DNA of 24,000 nucleotides from an uncultured Clostridia bacterium. Lineage in GTDB: Bacteria > Bacillota > Clostridia > Oscillospirales > Acutalibacteraceae. Of the stretch, positions 5,164-23,209 are shown in pieces. The stretch is from contig CALWIP010000023.1 in NCBI GenBank assembly GCA_944380775.1, positions 170,633 to 194,632 on the forward strand, in the 5' to 3' direction. A model generated the notes under the pieces. It saw nothing but the letters and a program-made list of their open reading frames with translations, did not search any database and was not told the origin of the DNA. The translations under genes were made by a program, and so were the position numbers. Positions within the stretch are counted from its first letter, which is position 1. The number at the start of each line of letters is the position of its first letter.

Positions 5164-6081
5164 TCACTGGAAATCGTTTTCCCCGTAGCCGAGGCTGCGC
5201 AGCACGGCTTCCCGGTTGCGCCAATCCTCCTTGACCTTGACCCAGAGCTGCAAATTAACCTTGCAGCCGAAAAATTTTTCCATATCCTCCCGGGCGTAGG
5301 AGCCAACCCGCTTGAGCATGGCGCCGCCCTTTCCAATGATAATCCCCTTGTGGTTGACGCGCTCACAATAGATGGTCGCGTCGATGTCGGTGACGCCGTC
5401 GCCGCGCTCCTTCATGCGTTCCACGGAAACGGCCAGGCCGTGCGGGACCTCTTTGTCCAACAGGCGCAGCAGCTTTTCGCGCACAATTTCCCCGGCAAGC
5501 ACGCGTTCCGGCTGGTCTGTAAGTGTGTCGCGGTCGAAGAAATGCGGGCCGGACTCCGCCAAAGCCTTGAGCTCTTTTTTCAAATCCTGGAGGCCGTTGC
5601 CGTCCAGCGCCGAAACTGGCACGACCGCCCGGAACGGAAATAATTCCGAATATGCGGCGATCTGCGCGAGCAGCTTCGATTTCTCCTCCAAGAGGTCGAT
5701 CTTATTCACTGCCAAAACAGCGGGCAAGCCCTGGCTCTGGAACCGCGCGATCAATTCGCGGTCCGCGGGGGAGATCTTCTGTCCCGCCTCCACCACGAGC
5801 AGGCAGGCGTCCACGCCGGAGACAGACTCCACCACCGAACGCACCATGTAGGAATCCAGCCGGTCGTGCGGCTTGTGCAGGCCGGGGGTGTCCAAAAAAA
5901 CAAGCTGGGTCTCCTCCTCGGTGAGCACACCCATGATGCGCGTGCGCGTGGTCTGCGGCTTGCGGGAGACGATGGCCACCTTCTGCCCTAAAAGGGCGTT
6001 GAGCAACGAGGACTTGCCCACGTTGGGCCGCCCAACAATGGCGAGAAACGCCGTTTTTTCCTGAAGTTCCTGATTAACCAA
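5164..6081 (-). CDS. era: GTPase Era
   Basis: 305 aa with G1 GRPNVGKSSLLN, G3 DTPG, NKID and a C-terminal KH domain (IYCERVNHKGIIIGKGGAMLK). The start is TTG at 6081, preceded by GGAG 7 nt upstream. Confidence 0.95.
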   Translation of the reverse strand: MVNQELQEKTAFLAIVGRPNVGKSSLLNALLGQKVAIVSRKPQTTRTRIMGVLTEEETQLVFLDTPGLHKPHDRLDSYMVRSVVESVSGVDACLLVVEAGQKISPADRELIARFQSQGLPAVLAVNKIDLLEEKSKLLAQIAAYSELFPFRAVVPVSALDGNGLQDLKKELKALAESGPHFFDRDTLTDQPERVLAGEIVREKLLRLLDKEVPHGLAVSVERMKERGDGVTDIDATIYCERVNHKGIIIGKGGAMLKRVGSYAREDMEKFFGCKVNLQLWVKVKEDWRNREAVLRSLGYGENDFQ

Positions 6082-6105
6082 AATGGTTTCTCCTTTTCCC
6101 CCGTG

Positions 6106-6654
6106 TCACGGGTTCTTTTTCTTTTGATGGAACGCGGCGCGCCGCCGGGCGAGGCGGTCCCGGATGCCGGCGGGGCCCCACTGAATGTAAACGAGCGCCG
6201 CTGCGAGCGAGAGCGCCAAGAGCGCGGCGCGCCAAGGCTGCGCCGCAAAATAGAGGACAATCCCCCAAAGCCGGTCCGGCTGCCAAAACAGGCAAACGCC
6301 TACGGCCACTGCAAACAGAGCGCAAACCAGCACGCCGCCCGCCGCCAAGTCCTTGACAATGCGCACCGCCGGGTGGTAGCTGGGCGCCGCGAGATCGGAA
6401 AGTTCCTCCGCAACAGTATTGAACACCTCGGCGCTGATGACCAGCGCGAAGGTGAGGAACAGCAGCGCGTACCGCGCCCGGGACATCTCAAAAAAGAACG
6501 AAAACGCGAATACATACAGCGCCGCCGCCGTATGTATCCGCAGATTGCGCTCGCTATTGACGCAGTAGAGCAGGCCCCGAAAGGCATATTTCAGGCTTTT
6601 CAGGAACCGGGCCCTCTTCTTTTTCCCGTTATTCCTCGTCTTCATCCAAGACAT
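6106..6654 (-). CDS. dgkA: Diacylglycerol/undecaprenol kinase (DgkA family)
   Basis: Small polytopic membrane protein with FLKSLKYAFRGLLYCVNSERNLRIH..AEVFNTVAEEL..VKDLAAGGVL, the DgkA signature. The start is uncertain: ATG at 6654 or 6645, or the ORF-track start at 6678. It overlaps the ybeY 3' end. Confidence 0.8.
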   Translation of the reverse strand: MSWMKTRNNGKKKRARFLKSLKYAFRGLLYCVNSERNLRIHTAAALYVFAFSFFFEMSRARYALLFLTFALVISAEVFNTVAEELSDLAAPSYHPAVRIVKDLAAGGVLVCALFAVAVGVCLFWQPDRLWGIVLYFAAQPWRAALLALSLAAALVYIQWGPAGIRDRLARRRAAFHQKKKNP

Positions 6655-7138
6655 AACTGCTGGTGCTGGGCAGGCCAAGCTGCGCCATGACCTGCTCTTC
6701 CTTTTCGCGCATGCGCACTTTTTCGATGCCGCCCTTCTCGTGGTCGTAGCCGAGCAGATGCAGCATGGAGTGCGCCGTCAAAAAGCCGACTTCCCGCTCA
6801 AGCGAATGGCCGTAACGCTCTGCCTGCTCAACCGCTTTTTCCAGGGAAATGACGATATCCCCGAGGATCTTTGCGCCGGTGTCGTGGTTCTCGTCGTACT
6901 GGCCGTTCTCGCCCATCGGGAAACTGAGCACATCGGTAGGCATGTCTTTGTTTCGGTACTGGCGGTTGAGCTCCTGGATCTGCCGGTTATCGACAAAGGT
7001 GACGCTGATCTCCGCGGAATAGGGAAATTTCTCCAGGCGGAGCACCGCGTTGCAGCAGCGGCGTACCAGCATGCGCAGGCCGGTGGGGATTTTGACTTCT
7101 TTCTGCTTGTTATCAATGATCACACGGATCTTTATCAT
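6629..7138 (-). CDS. ybeY: rRNA maturation endoribonuclease YbeY
   Basis: Contains the H-x3-H-x5-H zinc motif HSMLHLLGYDH and DVLSFPM. I chose the start at ATG 7138 (MIKIRVIID...), one nt after the phoH stop. The upstream part of the ORF-track entry looks non-coding for this gene. Confidence 0.9.
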   Translation of the reverse strand: MIKIRVIIDNKQKEVKIPTGLRMLVRRCCNAVLRLEKFPYSAEISVTFVDNRQIQELNRQYRNKDMPTDVLSFPMGENGQYDENHDTGAKILGDIVISLEKAVEQAERYGHSLEREVGFLTAHSMLHLLGYDHEKGGIEKVRMREKEEQVMAQLGLPSTSSYVLDEDEE

Positions 7139-7139
7139 C

Positions 7140-8099
7140 TCAACGCCTTCCTTCCTCTGCTTTTTCATACGCGCGGATAATATCCTGCACGAGTTTGTGC
7201 CGTACCACGTCCCGCTCGTTGAAGCGGACCTGAGCAATATCCTTCACATCCCGCAGGATGCGGAGCACCTCTTTGAGGCCTGATTTTTTCCCGTCCGGCA
7301 GATCAATCTGGGTGATGTCGCCGGTGATGACCATTTTAGAATTGAACCCCAGCCGGGTGAGGAACATTTTCATCTGTTCCGAGGTGGTGTTCTGCGCTTC
7401 ATCCAAAATGACGAAGCTGTCGTCCAACGTGCGCCCGCGCATGTAGGCGAGCGGCGCGACCTCGATATTGCCGCGCTCAACATATTTCTGGTACGTTTCG
7501 GCGCCCAGCATGTCGAACAACGCGTCATACAGCGGGCGCAGGTACGGGTCCACCTTCTGTTGCAGGTCTCCGGGCAAAAAGCCCAGCTTTTCGCCTGCCT
7601 CAACTGCCGGGCGGGTGAGGATGATGCGGTTCACCTCCTGCGCGCGGAACGCGGTCACCGCCATGGCCACGGCGAGATAGGTTTTGCCGGTGCCCGCCGG
7701 CCCAACGCCGATGGTGATGGTGTTTTGCCGGATTTTCTGGCAGTAATTTTTTTGCCCCAGCGTTTTCGGCTTGACCGGTTTGCCCTTTGCCGTAATGCAG
7801 ATGCAGTCGCCGGCGAGCGTTTCAATCTTCTGTTCCGCCCCCTCGTTGACCAGCGAGATGCAGTAATTCACATTCTGTTCGTTGAGCGCTTCCCCGCGGT
7901 TGACGAGGGAGAGCAGGCTCTCGATGGCCCGCACCGCCTTGCCCACGTCTTCCGGCTCCCCCGAAATTTTGAGTTCGGAGTCGCGGCTGACCACCGAAAC
8001 ATGGTATTCTTTTTCAATCAGTTTGATGTTCCCGTCAAAACTGCCAAACAGCGCGACCGCCTGTTCCATGCGGTCGATATTGATCTTTTGTTCCAGCAT
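7140..8099 (-). CDS. phoH: PhoH-like ATPase
   Basis: 319 aa with Walker A GPAGTGKTYLAVA, then LTRPAVEAGEKLGFLPGDL and FVILDEAQN. This is the PhoH family, in the conserved yqfD-phoH-ybeY order. Confidence 0.9.
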   Translation of the reverse strand: MLEQKINIDRMEQAVALFGSFDGNIKLIEKEYHVSVVSRDSELKISGEPEDVGKAVRAIESLLSLVNRGEALNEQNVNYCISLVNEGAEQKIETLAGDCICITAKGKPVKPKTLGQKNYCQKIRQNTITIGVGPAGTGKTYLAVAMAVTAFRAQEVNRIILTRPAVEAGEKLGFLPGDLQQKVDPYLRPLYDALFDMLGAETYQKYVERGNIEVAPLAYMRGRTLDDSFVILDEAQNTTSEQMKMFLTRLGFNSKMVITGDITQIDLPDGKKSGLKEVLRILRDVKDIAQVRFNERDVVRHKLVQDIIRAYEKAEEGRR

Positions 8100-8223
8100 C
8101 GTGTCCTTTTACTGTCCTACTTTCTGCGTTCTAAATTTTCTCTGTCCCACCCGCGGCGGGGACGCCGCCCGGCCGGGTGATTCCGCTGGGTTGTACCGCC
8201 CGCGCCGCTGCCTTCCTGCTGGT

Positions 8224-8252
8224 ATTATAACACAATTTCTGGGGTCCGTCAC
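8224..8252 (-). promoter_or_regulatory. Possible internal promoter for phoH
   Basis: On the minus strand, GTGACG (8252-8247), a 17-nt spacer and TGtTATAAT (extended -10, hexamer 8229-8224). A GC-rich hairpin follows in the roughly 125-nt leader. Confidence 0.3.
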
Positions 8253-8284
8253 GGGGAAGCGGGGCAAAATATTGCACAAAATTT

Positions 8285-9508
8285 TCATCCTACGTTTGAA
8301 TCCCCCGTCATTTCATCCCCGCCGCCGGTGAAGATCTCCGATTCCACCGCGATATTTTCCAACCCGGTGTATTGCACCTGGAGCCGGTACACGCCGCCCT
8401 GCACCGCGGCCCGTTCTTCCGCCCGCAAAAGCTCTACGCCTTCCCAGGCGTCCGTTTGCGCCTGGATTTCCCGCCACGCCTGCGCCGCGGCTTCCTCTTC
8501 CGTCAGCACGACCTCGCGCTCTTGAAAGCCCTCCCAGCGCTCGATGTAAAGCGATACCGGCAGGGAAACCCCGCCAAAAGAAAGCGTTTCCACACGCGCC
8601 GTGCAGGAATACCCTTCCTGCGGCGCGGGGACGGCCGTCAACGGGAACTGCAGGCTGAAGACGCGCAGGCTGCGGCGTTCGACCGTCTCCCCGGTGGGTT
8701 CCCGTATGGTCTGCCGCAGCGGGACCTCCGCCTCCGCGGTGCGCTGCGTCCGCGCGAGGACCTCGCCCGCCGCGTGGCTCAGGTGGGAGGCGCCGTATAC
8801 GTCTTCCCAAACCCCGCTGATCAGCAGCTGCCCTTCCGCCACGGCGTCCCCCGGGGAAACCGCCGCCTCGCCCTCGGTGGCATGGATGGACACGACCTGC
8901 CCGGCGCGCGCCGCCTTGACATTATAATAGCGTCCGGACTCTTTCACCGGCGGCGTCTCCACACGCTCTGAAAGCGTGATCGTCGCGACGCTCCCACGGG
9001 TATTGACGGAAATCCATCCGGCGTCCGGGTACCGGCGCATCAGCGACTGCTGCAAAAGATCCGGGTCGATATCCCCGCGCGGCACGCCGGGAAACAAACC
9101 GAGCAACTCCGCCTGCGCCAGCAATTCCTGGGCCTGAGGCCCAGAAACCCCCGCCACGTTGACGCTCCAGATGCAGGACGGCATCCAGAGCAGCAGCGCC
9201 GCCGCCAACGCGCCGCCCGCTACAAGCCCTTTGCGCCTCCGGCAGGCGCGCAGCCAAAACGGAAGGCCGTTCCGCCTGGAGACCCGCAGGCGCACCCCGG
9301 CGCGCCGCGCGGGCGCGCGCAGGCCCGCGTACTGCCCCGCCCGGACTGACGCCGAAAAGGCCTCCCCACGCCGCCTCACGCCCCAAAGGCTCGCGCCGGA
9401 GCGGGCCGCCAGGCTAAAGAAGCGCTCCCCTGCGCCGCGCCGTCCCCCTTGCGGAAAGACGGAAAACGTCACAGACCCGAGAAGCCACCGGGCCAAACCT
9501 GCCAGCAT
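8285..9508 (-). CDS. yqfD: Sporulation protein YqfD (stage IV sporulation-type membrane protein)
   Basis: 407 aa. The N-terminus MLAGLARWLLGSVTFSV is followed by one central TM segment (LVAGGALAAALLLWMPSCIW). The region WSVNVAGVSGP...ELLAQAELLGLFPGVPRGDID matches the YqfD architecture. The position between yqfC and phoH supports the call. Confidence 0.8.
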   Translation of the reverse strand: MLAGLARWLLGSVTFSVFPQGGRRGAGERFFSLAARSGASLWGVRRRGEAFSASVRAGQYAGLRAPARRAGVRLRVSRRNGLPFWLRACRRRKGLVAGGALAAALLLWMPSCIWSVNVAGVSGPQAQELLAQAELLGLFPGVPRGDIDPDLLQQSLMRRYPDAGWISVNTRGSVATITLSERVETPPVKESGRYYNVKAARAGQVVSIHATEGEAAVSPGDAVAEGQLLISGVWEDVYGASHLSHAAGEVLARTQRTAEAEVPLRQTIREPTGETVERRSLRVFSLQFPLTAVPAPQEGYSCTARVETLSFGGVSLPVSLYIERWEGFQEREVVLTEEEAAAQAWREIQAQTDAWEGVELLRAEERAAVQGGVYRLQVQYTGLENIAVESEIFTGGGDEMTGDSNVG

Positions 9509-11311: not shown

Positions 11312-11450
11312 AGGCTTTCCGGAGGGTCCGGCGCTTTACAGTTTTGTAATTTGCTTTTCCCGCACCCCTGCCCGCCGGGCGGGTGGTATGATAAGAACAA
11401 AGAAAACGATTTGTGGCAAACGGCGTTCGCGCCGGGAAAAGGAGGCCGCC

Positions 11451-11939
11451 ATGCAAGCTTCTGTTTTGCGCGCATTCCGCCGCTCGATGGCTGGCGCCAT
11501 CGCTTTTTGCCTGACGGCGGCGCTGTTCTTATCCGTCGGGGTTTTCGGCCTGACGCGCGGCGAGTGGGTGTTCCTCGCAGGCATCGCGGACGGCCTGCTG
11601 CTCCTGCTCCTGGCGTGGTTTGCCGGCCCGGTTTATCAATTCGGCAAGCTCCCCGCGCGCGGGGTCGCGCCGCTGGCCTCGCTGCCCGCCCCGAAAAACC
11701 TGTTCCAATATTGGACGCATTACCGGGCGCTGGACCATGAGCTCGGCCTTCCCAAGAAAAAAGCGGCGGTTTACGCGCCGCTGCTTTTGACAATCCTCGC
11801 CGCCGTCCTGCTGGTTGCTGCGGTGTTCCTCATTGGGAACGCGCTGTTCCCCGCCGGCCCGGCGATGGGCATGGACCCCGGCATGGGGATGGATATGGAC
11901 ATGGGCATGGCCGGAATGGAGGCCGTCGCTATCGGATAG
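11451..11939 (+). CDS. Hypothetical membrane protein with three predicted TM segments and a Met-rich C-terminal tail
   Basis: I chose ATG at 11451 because AAGGAGG lies 6 nt upstream. Hydrophobic segments are AIAFCLTAALFLSVGVFGL, WVFLAGIADGLLLLLLAWFAG and VYAPLLLTILAAVLLVAAVFLIG. The tail reads PAMGMDPGMGMDMDMGMAGMEAVAIG. Confidence 0.6.
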   Translation: MQASVLRAFRRSMAGAIAFCLTAALFLSVGVFGLTRGEWVFLAGIADGLLLLLLAWFAGPVYQFGKLPARGVAPLASLPAPKNLFQYWTHYRALDHELGLPKKKAAVYAPLLLTILAAVLLVAAVFLIGNALFPAGPAMGMDPGMGMDMDMGMAGMEAVAIG

Positions 11940-11945
11940 TCAAAA

Positions 11946-11973
11946 GGGCTGCCCCGCGGGGCGGCCCTTTTTG
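11946..11973 (+). terminator. Rho-independent terminator after the Met-tail membrane protein gene
   Basis: GGGCTGCCC (11946-11954) pairs with GGGCGGCCC (11959-11967) around a CGCG loop. TTTTT follows at 11968-11972. Confidence 0.6.
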
Positions 11974-11976
11974 CGC

Positions 11977-12005
11977 TGGACTTTTCCCCGCCGCCATGAT
12001 ATACT
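11977..12005 (+). promoter_or_regulatory. Promoter driving the structured non-coding region upstream of the RT
   Basis: TGGACT (11977-11982), a 17-nt spacer and TATACT (12000-12005), with TG at 11997-11998 (extended -10, TGaTATACT). The predicted start is near G12012, the first base of the left inverted-repeat arm. Confidence 0.5.
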
Positions 12006-12011
12006 GAACAT

Positions 12012-12204
12012 GCGGACGGGGCGGCAGCGTTTGCCTGCTTTCCGCAGGGGGCCGGCGAGTCGCGCGGCCTATTTTTGTTTGAGCGGCGCAAAGCTCCGCT
12101 TTGCCGGGGAACGCGGTCCTCGACGTGTTCACGACATCTTTCCAGATGTAACCACACGCCTGCGGCCGCCTTCCCGTAGAATTTTTTGTGCCGCCCCGCG
12201 CCGC
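12012..12204 (+). ncRNA. Candidate retron msr-msd non-coding RNA
   Basis: The left arm GCGGACGGGGCGGCA (12012-12026) is complementary to the right arm TGCCGCCCCGCGCCGC (12189-12204), giving 10+4 bp and enclosing 162 nt. G12027 in an AGC context follows the left arm. Local hairpins lie at 12034-12048, 12050-12069 and 12088-12104. A long imperfect hairpin spans 12107-12175. The region sits directly upstream of, and co-oriented with, a retron-type RT. Confidence 0.5.
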
Positions 12205-12283
12205 TTTCTTTATTTAAAACTCTTTTTATAAAAAGTCTCCAGGAAATCAAAAGGGATGCGCATCTGCGCAAGGAGGCAGGGGA

Positions 12284-13309
12284 ATGTCGCCCGAATTGAT
12301 GGCGTTCTGCGCCTATTGCTATCCCGGCCGGGATGAAGAAGGCCTGCGGCGTGCGTATGGCCAAATGATCCGCTTCACCCGCAAGCGGCTACAGACCGGT
12401 TTTTACACCGCGCTGCGCCTGCCAAAGCCCGGCGGCGGCGAACGCGTGGTCTTGGCGCCCAGCCCGGGCCTCAAGCGGGCGCAGGCGGCCGCGGCTTTGC
12501 TGCTCGCGGCGGAACCGGTCTCGCCCTACGCATGCGCCTACCGCAAGGGCGTTTCGCTGCGGGACAACGCCGCGCCGCACACCGGCGCGCCGCTGCTGCT
12601 CAAAACGGACCTGCGGGATTTCTTCGGCAGCGTCCGCTTCCCGGCGGTTTACCGCGCGTTTGACGGCGCGCTGCACCGCGCGCCGCCGCCGTTTCTGGCG
12701 CGCCGCCCGGAGGGGGAACCGTATCCGCTCAGCTTTTTCCTCGCGCGGCTTTGTACCTGCGAAGGCTCCCTCCCGCAGGGTTCCCCTGCCAGCCCCGTGC
12801 TCTCGAACCTGGCGTTTGCCGCCTGCGACCGCCGCATTGCCGCGTACTGCGGGGAACGGGGCATTTCCTACACCCGCTACAGCGACGACCTCACGTTCTC
12901 CGGCAAATTCTCCGCAGAGGCGCTGCTGCGCTTTCTGGACCGCCTGCTCGAGGACTCCGGTTTTTCGCGCCACCCGGGCAAGACGGCCGCCGCCGGCCCC
13001 GGCGCGCGCCACCGGGTAACCGGGCTTTCCGTCTCCGACCGGGTGCTCGCCCCGCGTGAATTCCGGCGTGCGATCCGCCAAGAATTTTATTATATCCAAA
13101 AATTCGGCCTTGCGCCGCATCTGGCCCGCCGGGGCGGGCCGGATTCCCCCGAAGCGCAAGAGGCCGCGCTGGCCGCGCTGCTTGGGCGCGTCTCGTTCGT
13201 CCTGCAAATGGACCCGCAGAACCGCGACTTCCTGCGCTACCGCGCGCTCTGCCTCGGCCCGCTGCGGGACGCCGTCGCCCGCGAATACCGGTACAGGAGG
13301 TTTCTATGA
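12284..13309 (+). CDS. Retron-type reverse transcriptase (RNA-directed DNA polymerase)
   Basis: AGGAGG lies 7 nt upstream of the ATG. Motifs are NAAPH (aa 95-99), LLLKTDLRDFFGSV (motif A), LPQGSPASPVLSNL, YTRYSDDLTFS (YxDD) and HRVTGLSV (VTG). At 341 aa it has no maturase or endonuclease domain. Confidence 0.9.
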   Translation: MSPELMAFCAYCYPGRDEEGLRRAYGQMIRFTRKRLQTGFYTALRLPKPGGGERVVLAPSPGLKRAQAAAALLLAAEPVSPYACAYRKGVSLRDNAAPHTGAPLLLKTDLRDFFGSVRFPAVYRAFDGALHRAPPPFLARRPEGEPYPLSFFLARLCTCEGSLPQGSPASPVLSNLAFAACDRRIAAYCGERGISYTRYSDDLTFSGKFSAEALLRFLDRLLEDSGFSRHPGKTAAAGPGARHRVTGLSVSDRVLAPREFRRAIRQEFYYIQKFGLAPHLARRGGPDSPEAQEAALAALLGRVSFVLQMDPQNRDFLRYRALCLGPLRDAVAREYRYRRFL

Positions 13310-14136
13310 ACATCGGCTGCCATTTGTCCATCGCCAAAGGCTACCGCGCAATGGGCGATCAGGCGCTTGCCCTCGGCGCCAACACGTTTCAATTTTTCAC
13401 CCGCAGCCCGCGCGGCGGCAAAAGCAAAGCGGCGGACCCCGCGGACCTGGCCGCGCTGCGCGCGCTACTGGCAGAGCGCCGGTTTGCCCCCCTGGTTGCG
13501 CACGCGCCGTATACGCTCAACCCCTGCGCAAAGGACGAGGGCCTGCGGGACTTTGCGCTGCGCGTGATGCGGGAAGACCTCGCGCTGCTCGCGCAGCTAC
13601 CGGGGAATTTTTATAACTTCCACCCCGGCTGCCATGTCGGCCAAGGCGTCGAAACCGGCGTCGCGTGGATTGCCGCGCTGCTCAACCAGGTGCTGCCTGC
13701 GGCGGAGGGCTGCGGCGTCCTGCTCGAAACGATGTCCGGCAAGGGCAGCGAGATCGGCGGGCGCTTTGAGGAATTGCGCGAGATCATCAGCCGCGTGGAG
13801 GGAAACGGCGCGCTCGGCGTCTGCCTGGACACCTGCCATGTGTATTCCGCGGGGTACGACCTCGTGAACGACTTGGACGGCGTTTTGACGGAATTTGACC
13901 GCGTGATCGGCCTGCAACGCTTAAAGGCGGTGCATTTGAACGACAGCCTGACGCCGTTCGCCAGCCGAAAGGACCGGCACGCAAAGATTGGCGAGGGTTC
14001 GCTCGGTTTGGATGCGATTTCGCGGATCCTTTTCCACCCGGCGCTGCGGGACCTCCCTTTTGTGCTGGAGACGCCGAATGAATTGGACGGTTACCGGGAA
14101 GAAATCCGCCTGCTGCGCGGCCTTGCGCCCGCATAA
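13306..14136 (+). CDS. nfo: Endonuclease IV (deoxyribonuclease IV, AP endonuclease family 2)
   Basis: 276 aa and collinear with E. coli Nfo. All metal-ligand blocks are present: AHAPYTLN, NFHPGCH, LLETMSGKG, LDTCHVYSAGYD, HLNDS, RKDRHAKIGEG and FVLETP. The ATG overlaps the RT stop (ATGA at 13306-13309), and the Shine-Dalgarno AGGAGG lies at 13295-13300. Confidence 0.95.
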   Translation: MNIGCHLSIAKGYRAMGDQALALGANTFQFFTRSPRGGKSKAADPADLAALRALLAERRFAPLVAHAPYTLNPCAKDEGLRDFALRVMREDLALLAQLPGNFYNFHPGCHVGQGVETGVAWIAALLNQVLPAAEGCGVLLETMSGKGSEIGGRFEELREIISRVEGNGALGVCLDTCHVYSAGYDLVNDLDGVLTEFDRVIGLQRLKAVHLNDSLTPFASRKDRHAKIGEGSLGLDAISRILFHPALRDLPFVLETPNELDGYREEIRLLRGLAPA

Positions 14137-14159
14137 CGGCGAAACAGGGAGGGATGGCG

Positions 14160-15770
14160 ATGAAACGGCTGCAGGGAACCGGGACTTGCGCAGGGTTTGC
14201 AGAAGGCCCCGTGTTTTTTTACCGGCGCGCAACTGCCGGCGGAGGGCCTGGGGGCGGCGGGGAAACGGAAGCCGCGCGCCTGGCGCTTGCCTACCGGCAG
14301 GCGGACCGGCAGCTGGAGGACCTGCGCCGCCTGGCGGAGGAAGAGGCCGGCGCGGAAAGCGCCCAGATTTTTGAAATCCACCGGATGATGCTCGCGGATG
14401 AGGATTTCCGGCAGTGCGCCGCCGCTGCGGTGGAACGCGGCGTTTCCGCCGAAGAGGCGGTTTGGCAGGCGGCGGAGCAATTTTCCGCCCTGCTGGAGCA
14501 GACCGGGGATCCGCTGCTGAGCGAACGCGCCGCCGACGTGCGCGACGCCGCGCGCACGCTGGAAAACGCCCTGTGCGGCGGGGAACCGCCTGCGCTGGAA
14601 TTCCCACAGCCGGTCATCCTGGCGGCGGAGGACCTTTCCCCCAGCGAAACGGTGCGCCTGGACAAACGCCAGGTGCTCGCCTTCCTCACTTCCGGCGGGA
14701 CGGCGCAGTCTCACACGGCGATCCTCGCACGCTCGTTGGGGATCCCGGCTGTGGTGGGCCTCGGCCCCGCGCTCGACGCAAGCTGGGACGGCGGCGACGC
14801 GCTGGTAGACGGGGGCCGCGGCATCGCGGTTCTCTCCCCTGATGCGGAGGCCCGCCGCCGGTTCCGGGAGGGGCAGGCGCTGGCTGCGAAAGAACAGCGG
14901 GAGCTCTCCCGTTTCCGGGACGTGCGTTCCGTCACCCGCAGCGGGCGGGCGGCGCCCGTTTGCGCGAATGTGGGCGCGCCGGGGGATCTGGACGCCGCGC
15001 TGGAGTCTGGCGCCGAGGGCATCGGCCTGTTCCGCACCGAATTTTTCTATCTCTCGCGGGAACAGCCGCCCACAGAAGAAGAACAATTCGCCGCCTACCG
15101 CGAAGCGCTGCGGCGCATGGGCGGGCGGCAGGTTGTGTTCCGCACGCTGGACGCCGGTTCCGACAAACAGGCGGCCTGCCTGGACCTCCCCGCCGAGCAA
15201 AACCCGGCGCTGGGCCTGCGCGGCCTGCGGTTCTGCCTTGAGCGCCCCGGCCTGTTCCGCACCCAGCTGCGCGCGCTGTACCGCGCCGCCGCAGAGGGGA
15301 ACGCAGCTATCATGTTCCCGATGGTGGCGTCCCTCTGGGAATTGCAGGAGGCAAAGGCGGCTGCGCGGGCCGTGCAGGACGAACTGCGCGCCGAAGGCCT
15401 CCCGTTCCGGGAAAAGGTCCCGCTCGGCGTGATGATCGAAACGCCGGCCGCGGCCGTCCTCAGCGCGGACCTCGCGCGCGAAGCGGATTTTTTCAGCATC
15501 GGGACAAACGACCTGACCCAATATGTCCTGGCGGCGGACCGCCTCTCGCCCGCCCTGCGGCGGTTTTACGACCCGCTCCACCCCGCCGTGCTGGCCCTGA
15601 TGCGCGCCACCGTGGAAAACGCCCACCGTGCGGGCATCCCCGCCGGCGTTTGCGGCGAAGTCGCGGCGAATCCCCGGGCGGTCCCGCTTTTGCTGGAGAT
15701 GGGTGTGGACAAGCTCTCCGTCGCGCCGCCGTCCGTTTTACCGGTGCGCGCCGCGGTCTGCGCCTTTTAA
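14160..15770 (+). CDS. ptsI: Phosphoenolpyruvate-protein phosphotransferase (PTS enzyme I)
   Basis: Contains the active-site His block GGTAQSHTAILARSLGIPAVVG, plus GLFRTEFFYL, MIETPAA and FSIGTNDLTQY. I prefer ATG 14160 because of its spacing from GGGAGGG; 14154 is the alternative. Confidence 0.9.
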   Translation: MKRLQGTGTCAGFAEGPVFFYRRATAGGGPGGGGETEAARLALAYRQADRQLEDLRRLAEEEAGAESAQIFEIHRMMLADEDFRQCAAAAVERGVSAEEAVWQAAEQFSALLEQTGDPLLSERAADVRDAARTLENALCGGEPPALEFPQPVILAAEDLSPSETVRLDKRQVLAFLTSGGTAQSHTAILARSLGIPAVVGLGPALDASWDGGDALVDGGRGIAVLSPDAEARRRFREGQALAAKEQRELSRFRDVRSVTRSGRAAPVCANVGAPGDLDAALESGAEGIGLFRTEFFYLSREQPPTEEEQFAAYREALRRMGGRQVVFRTLDAGSDKQAACLDLPAEQNPALGLRGLRFCLERPGLFRTQLRALYRAAAEGNAAIMFPMVASLWELQEAKAAARAVQDELRAEGLPFREKVPLGVMIETPAAAVLSADLAREADFFSIGTNDLTQYVLAADRLSPALRRFYDPLHPAVLALMRATVENAHRAGIPAGVCGEVAANPRAVPLLLEMGVDKLSVAPPSVLPVRAAVCAF

Positions 15771-21335: not shown

Positions 21336-22805
21336 ATGGCTGACCAAGAGAGAGGAAACCAATTCCTGCGGGAAAACATGACCATGCTCACCGACTTTTA
21401 CGAGCTAACGATGGCGAACGGCTACTTTGCCAACGGCTTTGCAGACACCACCGTTTACTTTGACATGTTCTTCCGGCGCGTGCCGGACGGCGGCGGCTTC
21501 GCGATTATGGCAGGCGTACAGCAGCTGGTGGAATACCTGGAAAACCTCCATTTCACCGCGGAAGACATCGCGTTCCTGCGCGCCAAAAAGCTATTCAGCG
21601 AAGATTTTTTGAACTACCTGCAAAATTTTGAATTCAGCTGCGACGTGTGGGCCGTGCCGGAGGGCACCCCGATCTTCCCGGGCGAGCCGATTGTTACCGT
21701 GCGCGGCCCGGTGGTGCAGGCGCAGTTCATTGAGACCATGGTGCTGCTGAGCATCAACCACCAGAGTATGATTGCAACCAAGGCCAACCGCATTGTGCGC
21801 GCCGCCCAGGGCCGCGCGGTGATGGAATTCGGCTCCCGCCGGGCGCAGGGCTGCGACGGCGCGGTGTACGGCGCGCGCGCCGCTTATATCGGCGGCTGCT
21901 GCGGCACAGCCTGCACCATCTCGGACCGCCGCTTCGGCATCCCCGCCCTGGGGACAATGGCGCACAGCTGGGTGCAGATGTTTGACACCGAGCTCGACGC
22001 CTTCCGCGCTTACGCAAAAGAATACCCCCACCAGTGCACCCTGCTGGTGGACACTTACAACGTGCTGAAATCCGGCGTACCAAACGCCATCCGGGTCTTC
22101 CGGGAGGAGCTGCTGCCGCAGGGCTTCCGCCCCGCCGGCATCCGCATCGACAGCGGCGACATCACCTACCTTTCGCGCAAGGCGCGCCAGATGCTGGACG
22201 ACGCCGGTTTTGAAGACTGCAAGATTTGCGCCTCCAATTCGCTGGATGAATATATCATCCGGGACATGCTCATCCAGGGCGCGCAGGTGGACAGCTTCGG
22301 CGTCGGCGAACGGCTCATTACCTCTTCCTCCGAGCCGGTGTTTGGGGGCGTGTACAAATTGTCCGGCGTGGAAACGCCGGACGGCGCCATCATCCCGAAG
22401 ATTAAAATCTCGGAAAATGTCTCGAAAATCACCACGCCGTGCTTCAAGAAGCTCTGGCGCCTGTTTGACCGGGAGAGCGGCAAGGCGATTGCGGACCTGA
22501 TTACGCTGCACGACGAAGTGGTGGACGACAGCAAACCGTATGTTCTCTTTGACCCGGAGCATGTGTGGAAGCGCAAACAGGTGACAAATTTCCGCGCGGT
22601 GAACCTGCGCACGCAGCTCTTCGCCAAAGGGAAAAAGGTTGCGAAGGAGCGCAGCCTGCAGGAGATTCAGGACTACTGCCGCAGCCAAGTGGACACGCTC
22701 TGGGACGAAGTGACGCGCTTTGAAAACCCGCATGAATATTATGTCGACCTTTCGCAGCCGCTTTGGGACATTAAGAACCGGCTGATCTGCGAGCACACGA
22801 TGTGA
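21336..22805 (+). CDS. pncB: Nicotinate phosphoribosyltransferase
   Basis: 489 aa. Contains N-terminal LTDFYELTMANGYF, then EFGSRRAQG, GTMAHSWVQ and IRIDSGD, matching the NAPRTase family. GGAAGGA lies 6 nt upstream of the ATG. Confidence 0.9.
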   Translation: MADQERGNQFLRENMTMLTDFYELTMANGYFANGFADTTVYFDMFFRRVPDGGGFAIMAGVQQLVEYLENLHFTAEDIAFLRAKKLFSEDFLNYLQNFEFSCDVWAVPEGTPIFPGEPIVTVRGPVVQAQFIETMVLLSINHQSMIATKANRIVRAAQGRAVMEFGSRRAQGCDGAVYGARAAYIGGCCGTACTISDRRFGIPALGTMAHSWVQMFDTELDAFRAYAKEYPHQCTLLVDTYNVLKSGVPNAIRVFREELLPQGFRPAGIRIDSGDITYLSRKARQMLDDAGFEDCKICASNSLDEYIIRDMLIQGAQVDSFGVGERLITSSSEPVFGGVYKLSGVETPDGAIIPKIKISENVSKITTPCFKKLWRLFDRESGKAIADLITLHDEVVDDSKPYVLFDPEHVWKRKQVTNFRAVNLRTQLFAKGKKVAKERSLQEIQDYCRSQVDTLWDEVTRFENPHEYYVDLSQPLWDIKNRLICEHTM

Positions 22806-22858: not shown

Positions 22859-23205
22859 GCGAGCAGGCCAGACGGCTGCGGGCAGCGCCCGAAAGAGCCT
22901 GCCTGAGGAAAGTCCGAGCTCCACAGGGCAAGAATAACGGCTAACGGCCGCCGGGGGCGACCCTAGGGAAAGTGCAACAGAGAGATACCGCCGCCCAGTG
23001 CGGTAAGGGTGGAAAGGCGAGGTAAGAGCTCACCAGCGCGCGGGAGACCGCGCGGCTCTGCAAACCCTATTCGGAGCAACACCGTGGAGGGACACATGCG
23101 CCGGCCCGGCGCGTCCCGAGGAGGTGGCACTGAGCCGCGACGGCAACGTCCGGCCAAGATAGATGGCCGTCCAAGACAGAACTCGGCTTACAGGCCTGGT
23201 CGCAC
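22859..23205 (+). ncRNA. rnpB: RNase P RNA, bacterial type A
   Basis: Universally conserved blocks are present: GAGGAAAGTCCGAGCTCCACAGGGCA, GGGAAAGTGCAACAGAGAG, GGTAAGAGCTCACCAG and ACAGAACTCGGCTTACAGG. The ends GCGAGCAGGCC (22859-22869) and GGCCTGGTCGC (23193-23203) pair as helix P1. Confidence 0.9.
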
Positions 23206-23209
23206 TAAA

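Follow-up and report, generated by a model that had tools for sequence, protein, structure and literature searches.

A probable Ec107-like retron without a cis effector upstream of nfo in a high-GC Clostridia chromosome

In the branch of retron reverse transcriptase (RT) clade 2 represented by Retron-Eco5 (Ec107), an associated phosphoribosyltransferase (PRTase) occurs with only 2 of 59 RTs, and the others have no associated protein (PMC7736814). Mestre et al., 2020 considered that such orphan retrons may use trans partners or another mechanism and left the question open (PMC7736814). Ec107 replaces 34 bp of an E. coli intergenic region, has no mobility genes nearby and carries YCDD instead of YADD (PMC6868368); it was left out of the first defence screen by Millman et al. 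(10.1101/2020.06.21.156273). Clade 2 is among the best producers of RT-DNA in E. coli (Khan et al.; 10.1101/2024.01.25.577267), and the SPIRE survey of 2026 counted 192 clade2_Ec107like retrons, 93% of them in Bacillota, which are strongly host-associated and lack accessory modules (10.64898/2026.05.14.725207). Here we describe a retron RT gene and its surroundings in a 24,000-nt stretch of contig CALWIP010000023.1 (GCA_944380775.1) from an uncultured Clostridia bacterium, hereafter the window. With a probability of about 0.85, the locus represents the effector-less clade 2/Ec107-like lineage with an intact retron, whose ~1.33-kb cassette of promoter, msr-msd and RT occupies the spacer between a conserved membrane-protein gene and nfo in a high-GC Clostridia chromosome. 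This orphan, Ec107-like lineage of clade 2, found mostly in gut Bacillota, has been described before, and the locus adds a member to it.

The likeness to the Ec107 branch rests on the best-scoring profile, RT_Ec107-like, together with the architecture and the published description. Like Ec107, the cassette has no components other than a promoter, an msr-msd and an RT of some 320-340 aa, and it is ~1.3 kb long. Its setting is an intergenic spacer flanked by housekeeping genes and free of integrase, prophage and repeats (PMC6868368). Neither has a YADD catalytic box: the motif reads YSDD here and YCDD in Ec107. No protein is specifically associated with the RT, as in the Ec107 branch (PMC7736814), and the gut-type Bacillota host range agrees with that of the Ec107-like lineage (10.64898/2026.05.14.725207). 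In contrast to Ec107, the host is a member of Clostridia, not E. coli, and the RT stop codon overlaps the start of the downstream nfo. Type III-A, which Mestre et al. placed as the sister group of the Ec107 branch (PMC7736814), is nearly equal by RT profile: the best PADLOC model was RT_Ec107-like (4.8e-78, 260.6 bits) and the second RT_III-A (3.7e-77, 257.7 bits). However, in type III-A retrons the effector is PRTase-like and may be accompanied by a winged-helix protein, whereas the flanking genes here encode a membrane protein and Nfo, neither of which matches PADLOC.

The closest solved structures are those of Retron-Eco1 (Ec86) and Retron-Eco7 (Ec78), which share the fold (TMt 0.73-0.79) and the aligned NAxxH and VTG motifs with this RT, although the RT identity is only 26-27%. 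The layout of the non-coding RNA (ncRNA) is also shared with Ec86 and Ec78: a1 is followed by the branching G, set in AGC, by two hairpins of the msr and one of the msd, by a conserved G and finally by a2. In contrast, their cis effectors (an NDT-like protein, PtuAB), which are held in check by the complex of RT and multicopy single-stranded DNA (msDNA), have no counterpart here. The myxobacterial retrons Mx162 and Sa163 are also chromosomal, host-like in composition and vertically inherited (PMC6868368), a pattern that this family shows in metagenome-assembled genomes (MAGs) of Bacilli, but they belong to a different RT clade, produce much longer msDNA and are now classed with effector-bearing types.

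The retron reading was confirmed most strongly by an element absent from the original prediction, which had recognized the RT by its motifs: a conserved, covarying msr-msd ncRNA directly 5′ of the RT (Table 1). The sole promoter-like site between the upstream terminator and nfo ends ~7 nt before this ncRNA. The minimum free energy of the msr-msd fold is -96.1 kcal/mol (z = -3.35). Read in order, the a1/a2 stem is followed by an unpaired AGC, a pair of small hairpins, one short and then one long hairpin, and a U-rich stretch with a terminal G, before a2 closes the element; this is the canonical msr-msd layout. Ten contiguous Watson-Crick pairs join a1 and a2 (12017-12026/12189-12198), and 10 of the 13 pairs of this helix covary among relatives. 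In the closest RT relatives, the a1/a2 repeats are equally far from the RT and differ in sequence. When 13 regions from the closest relatives were aligned, the RNAalifold consensus was the same structure with 54 pairs, 32 of which showed compensatory double changes. The long msd hairpin accounts for 18+6 pairs, 12 of them with compensatory changes, and is 93-94% paired. In the named structure, 91.2% of the cells were paired versus 77.5% in shuffles and 33-50% with partners slid, and the covariation score was 0.444 versus 0.199 and 0.08-0.16, respectively; none of 500 shuffles attained the observed pairing or covariation values.

A covariance model built from this alignment matched the window at 12007-12209 with 126.5 bits and located the ncRNA on the RT strand, directly 5′ of the RT, in ~40 loci. 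These loci include 27 full-length non-seed hits, in which RT identity falls as low as ~33%; among the non-seed loci are L017-L020 at 1e-28 to 1e-33, L003-L006 at ~1e-15 and many AT-rich MAGs of Bacilli. Rfam contained no family for the ncRNA, either at the gathering threshold or at E ≤ 10, and returned terminator-hairpin noise only.

Table 1. Features of the retron locus and its flanks (positions in the window)
Feature	Position	Strand	Basis
Intrinsic terminator hairpin of the upstream membrane-protein gene; left insertion boundary, host sequence	11942-11971	+	inverted repeat and T run
Putative sigma-70-like promoter for retron transcription (TGGACT, 17 nt, TG-TATACT)	11977-12005	+	promoter-like site
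msr-msd ncRNA gene, retron template and primer RNA, ~195 nt	12012-12205	+	fold, covariance model, covariation
a1, left arm of the terminal inverted repeat	12014-12026	+	pairs with 12189-12201
Predicted branching guanosine, in the conserved A-G-C directly 3′ of a1	12027	+	conservation, analogy
msr hairpin 1 (CCUGC-UUUCC-GCAGG)	12034-12048	+	4 of 5 pairs covary
msr hairpin 2, with family-invariant apex GCGAGUCG at 12055-12062	12049-12070	+	conservation; lower stem covaries
Long msd hairpin, template for the msDNA stem-loop	12107-12175	+	fold, covariation
Conserved UUUG (G12188, conserved guanosine at the initiation site), then a2 (12189-12201)	12185-12201	+	conservation
Retron RT, 341 aa, YSDD catalytic box, no fused domain	12284-13309	+	ORF, profiles, alignment, fold
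nfo, endonuclease IV, host housekeeping gene	13306-14136	+	TIGR00587
Bacterial RNase P RNA, class A, complete	22860-23206		242.9 bits

Across the 41 aligned full-length hits, the AG of AGC (12026-12027), GCGAGTCG at the apex of hairpin 2 (12055-12062) and the GT at 12188-12189 are at least 90% conserved. G12027, GCGAGTCGC of msr hairpin 2, G12188 and the TTTGT at the a2 border are each invariant in the 13 closest relatives. By analogy with other retrons, the sites conserved throughout the family are where a branching G, an RT-recognition element and the initiation site would be expected. G12027 is likely the branch point, its 2′-OH priming cDNA synthesis, msr hairpin 2 is likely the recognition element of the RT, and synthesis of the cDNA is predicted to begin at 12187/12188 and proceed leftwards.

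We propose that a single transcript would start at ~12010 and that its 5′ part would fold with a1 paired to a2. The RT, translated from the same mRNA, would bind the msr hairpins, chiefly the invariant GCGAGUCG hairpin, prime on the 2′-OH of G12027 and copy msd from ~12187 leftwards through the long hairpin. Copying would stop near the msr/msd boundary, and the product would be a branched RNA-DNA molecule, the msDNA, of ~85-105 nt. Our best guess for the cellular role is phage or stress sensing by an RT-msDNA particle, with no toxin or an unlinked partner. As a separate observation, CGTGT/ACACG in the msd stem (12124-12128 and 12154-12158; region noted as 12143-12189) is invariant among the 13 closest relatives, whose RTs are 42-52% identical, and this conservation fades in the wider family. 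The msDNA may be read in a sequence-specific manner.

The RT gene starts with ATG, 7 nt downstream of an AAGGAGG ribosome-binding site. Every motif position in the original prediction was right on recounting the translation: the NAxxH motif of region X, between RT2 and RT3, is N95-A-A-P-H99 (12566-12580), followed by D109 (12608), Q165 (12776), Y199-S-D-D202 (12878-12889) and the VTG triplet of RT7 (region Y) as V245-T-G247 (13016-13024). In a HMMER alignment with the Ec86 retron RT (7v9u), NAAPH stands opposite NATPH and RVTGL opposite KVTGL; both motifs are homologous and not misaligned coincidences. H99, D109, Q165, Y199, D201, D202 and G247 are invariant in the alignment of the RT with 13 relatives, and A96 and V245 are nearly invariant among the 14 members. 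The catalytic residues are intact in the translated open reading frame (ORF), and the predicted lack of a fused domain agrees with Pfam, in which RVT_1 (E = 4.7e-15) is the sole domain. Between the ncRNA and the RT, directly 5′ of the ribosome-binding site, lies a perfect palindrome, TGCGCA-TC-TGCGCA (12257-12270), which might affect translation of the RT or delimit the processed ncRNA at its 3′ end. Long antisense ORFs on the minus strand across the RT and ncRNA (12389-13207 and 11771-12364) were taken as high-GC artefacts.

Profile searches, PDB sequences and a fold search all place the RT among the retron RTs, in line with the original prediction. The PADLOC scan of the window assigned the RT to retron models, which make up all of the best 25 of 59 matched models. 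NCBIfam retron models scored 130-162 bits, under their narrow equivalog cut-offs, far above the non-retron models Drt2 (37 bits), group II (35 bits) and Drt3a (16 bits). All 14 PDB sequence matches were retron RTs, with Ec86 at 7e-28. An AlphaFold model of the RT was built from the family alignment (pLDDT 92.7, pTM 0.84); when it was compared with the PDB by Foldseek, the top 17 matches were retron RTs (Eco7/Ec78, Ec86, Eco2, Ec83 and Eco8), with TMt values of 0.39-0.79, those for same-size enzymes being 0.73-0.79 and the low values belonging to the 580-aa Ec67 fusion. Structures of group II, diversity-generating retroelement (DGR) and DRT enzymes ranked after them, with E values at least 7 orders of magnitude weaker. 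The sequence matches and the modelled fold support assignment of the RT to the retron class.

A related organism provides a retron-free comparator. In L094 (GCA_944381295.1), whose nfo is 76% identical to that of the window, the gene order is the same: YqfD, YabP, Gate protein, small Cys protein, transmembrane (TM) protein and nfo. The retron-free site lies at L094:3581-3702, where the spacer from the TM gene to nfo measures 120 bp and holds its own GC-rich palindrome with a T-run, read by eye as a terminator. No RT was found in L094 by tblastn and no ncRNA by the covariance model. As this genome keeps the gene order without RT or ncRNA, the retron is a discrete ~1.33-kb intergenic insertion, bounded on the left by the TM-gene terminator and on the right by the nfo ribosome-binding site. 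The terminator consists of a 15-nt inverted repeat with a 0-nt loop, followed by the T run. A search for target-site duplications or flanking direct repeats gave chance-level short matches only, such as one of 12/13 nt between 11940 and 12247. The retron is present in every same-species contig, at 99.1-99.9% DNA identity.

The original prediction had also seen no obvious recent island. Its grounds hold: the G+C content of the RT region (0.68-0.70) lies inside the range of the window (0.52-0.73) and is host-like, and the 24 kb contain no tRNA, integrase, transposase or phage gene. The conclusion calls for a caveat, since the retron is an insertion in comparison with L094, although a compact one that lacks mobility genes.

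The RT-ncRNA unit is widespread. We confirmed 314 RT-ncRNA loci among the GTDB representatives, amounting to hundreds of species; relatives occur in Anaeromassilibacillus, Caproiciproducens, Ruminococcaceae and many gut MAGs of Bacilli, the closest RT relatives being in the first two genera. Outside its own 90% cluster, the nearest relative of the RT is 52% identical. Ten species-level MAGs of Bacilli/'Tenericutes' (L022, L025, L027, L034, L053, L059, L066, L071, L075 and L080) have kept the retron in a single chromosomal location, flanked in eight of them by MetRS upstream and MurE downstream. Pairwise RT identity in this set (52-97%) tracks MetRS identity (81-98%; r = 0.82), and its pace is about that of MurE. 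The comparison indicates that an effector-less retron has probably long been inherited vertically in the MetRS-MurE lineage. Because the retron stays at this position while the RT diverges in step with MetRS, it appears to be under purifying selection; since ncRNA covariation is also kept family-wide, the persistence points to a selected function rather than decay.

No candidate for a toxic cis effector was found in the window or conserved among 87 related loci. We clustered all neighbours within 4 kb of the RT relatives at these 87 loci against one another, and no cluster occurred in more than 10 loci. The recurrent neighbours were housekeeping genes of closely related MAGs (MetRS, MurE, P-type ATPase and transglycosylase). 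Neither a PRTase-like nor a winged-helix effector lies beside the RT here or in the 87 related loci, among which no PRTase neighbour is conserved. Of the neighbouring genes, 62 of 76 upstream and 54 of 80 downstream are co-directional with the RT (83 related loci, L001-L087). The co-directional downstream slot is filled by 30 unrelated families, for example Mur ligase, NusB, YchF, a sigma factor and ZIP; no functional theme emerged among them, most being housekeeping genes, with one Ogt and two NUDIX. Retrons of this family sit within host gene arrays, like the RT and nfo. PADLOC returned only generic P-loop or helix-turn-helix noise for the other proteins of the window. Several candidates were examined and rejected. 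The nicotinate phosphoribosyltransferase (NAPRTase) at 21336-22805 was considered as a PRTase effector of type III, but it lies 8 kb downstream, has the three domains of a standard PncB and lacks a PADLOC match. The 183-aa membrane protein upstream and a 78-aa Cys-rich protein have no PADLOC hit, and both are present in the retron-free L094 (57-60% and 47% identity). In four of the closest relatives, the RT is followed by a secreted GH25 protein of ~770 aa, which was read as lineage synteny.

The ATG of nfo overlaps the RT stop codon by 4 nt (ATGA, 13306-13309), which the original prediction had missed, and the Shine-Dalgarno sequence of nfo (AGGAGG) falls within the last RT codons. Such an arrangement could mean that the RT and nfo form a functional pair, endonuclease IV being the retron effector or an msDNA-processing enzyme and the overlap enforcing stoichiometric co-expression. 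As there is neither a promoter-like site from the retron promoter to nfo nor a terminator between RT and nfo, nfo is probably expressed from the retron transcript; every contig of this species has the retron joined to nfo through an identical junction, which the metagenome contig L095 also shows, and a sub-branch of the family is linked to repair-like genes encoding a UDG-like protein (weak, E = 0.0011) and a metallophosphoesterase. However, nfo adjoins the RT in none of the 87 related loci, only one of which has nfo 4 kb off, and it holds the same position by the same upstream genes in L094. Its product is a typical Nfo (TIGR00587 at 6.7e-78, 262 bits; 65-70% identical to thousands of Nfo proteins) without a matching PADLOC model, and tight co-directional packing on unrelated host genes is the rule of the family, the downstream neighbour starting ≤100 bp past the RT stop in 37 of 80 loci with 30 families represented. 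We consider the pairing unlikely and, on these comparative grounds, rejected nfo as an effector; it would rather be an innocent host gene now reading through from the retron promoter. A broader proposal, which we find quite improbable, is that the Ec107-like retrons of gut Bacillota are domesticated chromosomal modules, inherited vertically and placed co-directionally before host genes without a cis toxin, and that the module here is coupled translationally to endonuclease IV. If so, msDNA synthesis would be co-regulated with base-excision repair, or Nfo would act on msDNA; this would fit the UDG-like and phosphoesterase genes of the sister sub-branch and point to a DNA-damage or repair role for orphan retrons.

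The near-equal score of RT_III-A, the absence of an effector from the window and the PRTase loss proposed by Mestre et al. for the Ec107 branch (PMC7736814) would also suit a decaying type III-A relic that lost its PRTase effector and retains no activity. This seems very improbable: the RT is encoded by an uninterrupted ORF that keeps every catalytic and retron-specific residue, the ncRNA structure is maintained by compensatory changes, the RT-ncRNA unit persists in the 314 confirmed loci, and the MetRS-MurE lineage retained the retron while the RT fell to 52% identity in step with MetRS (r = 0.82). The chance that the RT instead belongs to another class, namely DRT/UG, Abi, DGR or a group II intron fragment, is negligible, and this reading is already refuted. 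Its basis would be the generic RVT_1 domain and weak partial matches to Drt2, group II and Drt3a around the YxDD box, but these models reach 16-37 bits versus 130-260 for retron models, and the fold E values are 1e-10 or weaker versus ~1e-11 to 1e-19 for retron RTs. The alignment of NAxxH and VTG with the Ec86 motifs and the canonical a1/a2 msr-msd upstream also argue against it, as does the lack of an intron RNA domain, maturase, endonuclease, Avd or template-repeat/variable-repeat (TR/VR) pair.

Some points weigh against an intact, effector-less Ec107-like retron. RT_Ec107-like leads RT_III-A by 3 bits only, so the assignment to the orphan branch is made by locus architecture, not by a tree. 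The branching G and the cDNA limits rest on analogy with characterized retrons. The view is limited to 24 kb of the genome, and an unlinked effector could lie outside. The ATGA overlap with nfo in every contig of the same species could reflect function and not accident. Finally, the family is not uniformly effector-less, because the sub-branch of L056 and L004-L006 is linked to genes for WYL, UDG-like and metallophosphoesterase proteins.

The locus is a tidy test case for the function of effector-less retrons, as all parts of the cassette are mapped and a natural retron-free comparator exists, and the family-wide ncRNA signature (AGC branch site, GCGAGUCG loop and G at the a2 border) is open to mutation. 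Transcription of the host repair gene nfo probably depends on the retron promoter. In annotation, we suggest naming the RT as a retron RT and recording its ncRNA with it, and not labelling nfo as an effector of the retron.

The surroundings are housekeeping genes, as the original prediction had it: MutS2, RecO, Era, DgkA, YbeY, PhoH, YqfD, a Gate-domain protein, Nfo and PtsI. The window also contains genes for KDG kinase, KDPG aldolase, IclR, UppP and NAPRTase, and the RNase P RNA. On the minus strand, 5164-9508 holds the classic Firmicute string yqfD-phoH-ybeY-dgkA-era-recO, followed by mutS2. The yqfD-recO string, with YabP in contigs of the same species, points to a spore-forming member of Clostridia with ~63% G+C as the host. 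An apparent divergence of PtsI in L092 was not real and came from indels in a long-read contig. The upstream membrane protein (11388-11939, 183 aa; gene callers use a later ATG giving 162 aa) has no family match above the cut-off. Its tail is rich in Met, Gly and Asp (GMDPGMGMDMDMGMAGME), and such a tail is also present in the L094 orthologue; it could bind metal. The short contig L095 (1-1420) is ~100% identical to 12976-14400 of the window over the 3′ end of the RT gene and two thirds of nfo from its start, and diverges abruptly from ~13880, to 83%, then 60%, then 40%. This break inside nfo is either an assembly chimera or a recombination breakpoint.

In the sub-branch mentioned above, L056:1949-7353 and L004:951-7062 (also L005 and L006) carry a family RT beside the same gene set in two lineages. 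The set comprises a WYL/WCX regulator, a ~220-aa protein with a weak match to the UDG superfamily (below the cut-off) and a calcineurin-like phosphoesterase, and these proteins are 65%, 39% and 67% identical between L056 and L004. No homologues of the set were found in the window. In L004, the set is divergent from the RT, and a Macro-domain protein and a 464-aa protein of unknown function are also present. The gene set may be an accessory module of the sub-branch. The order in L056 is WYL, ncRNA, RT, UDG-like, Metallophos, a second ncRNA and a 525-aa RT. A two-copy arrangement resembling this one was seen in L074 (1007-2143 and 5755-7353; labelled as a Bacteroides sp. MAG), in which a truncated RT-like ORF of 161 aa with its own ncRNA hit lies ~4.5 kb upstream of a 532-aa RT.

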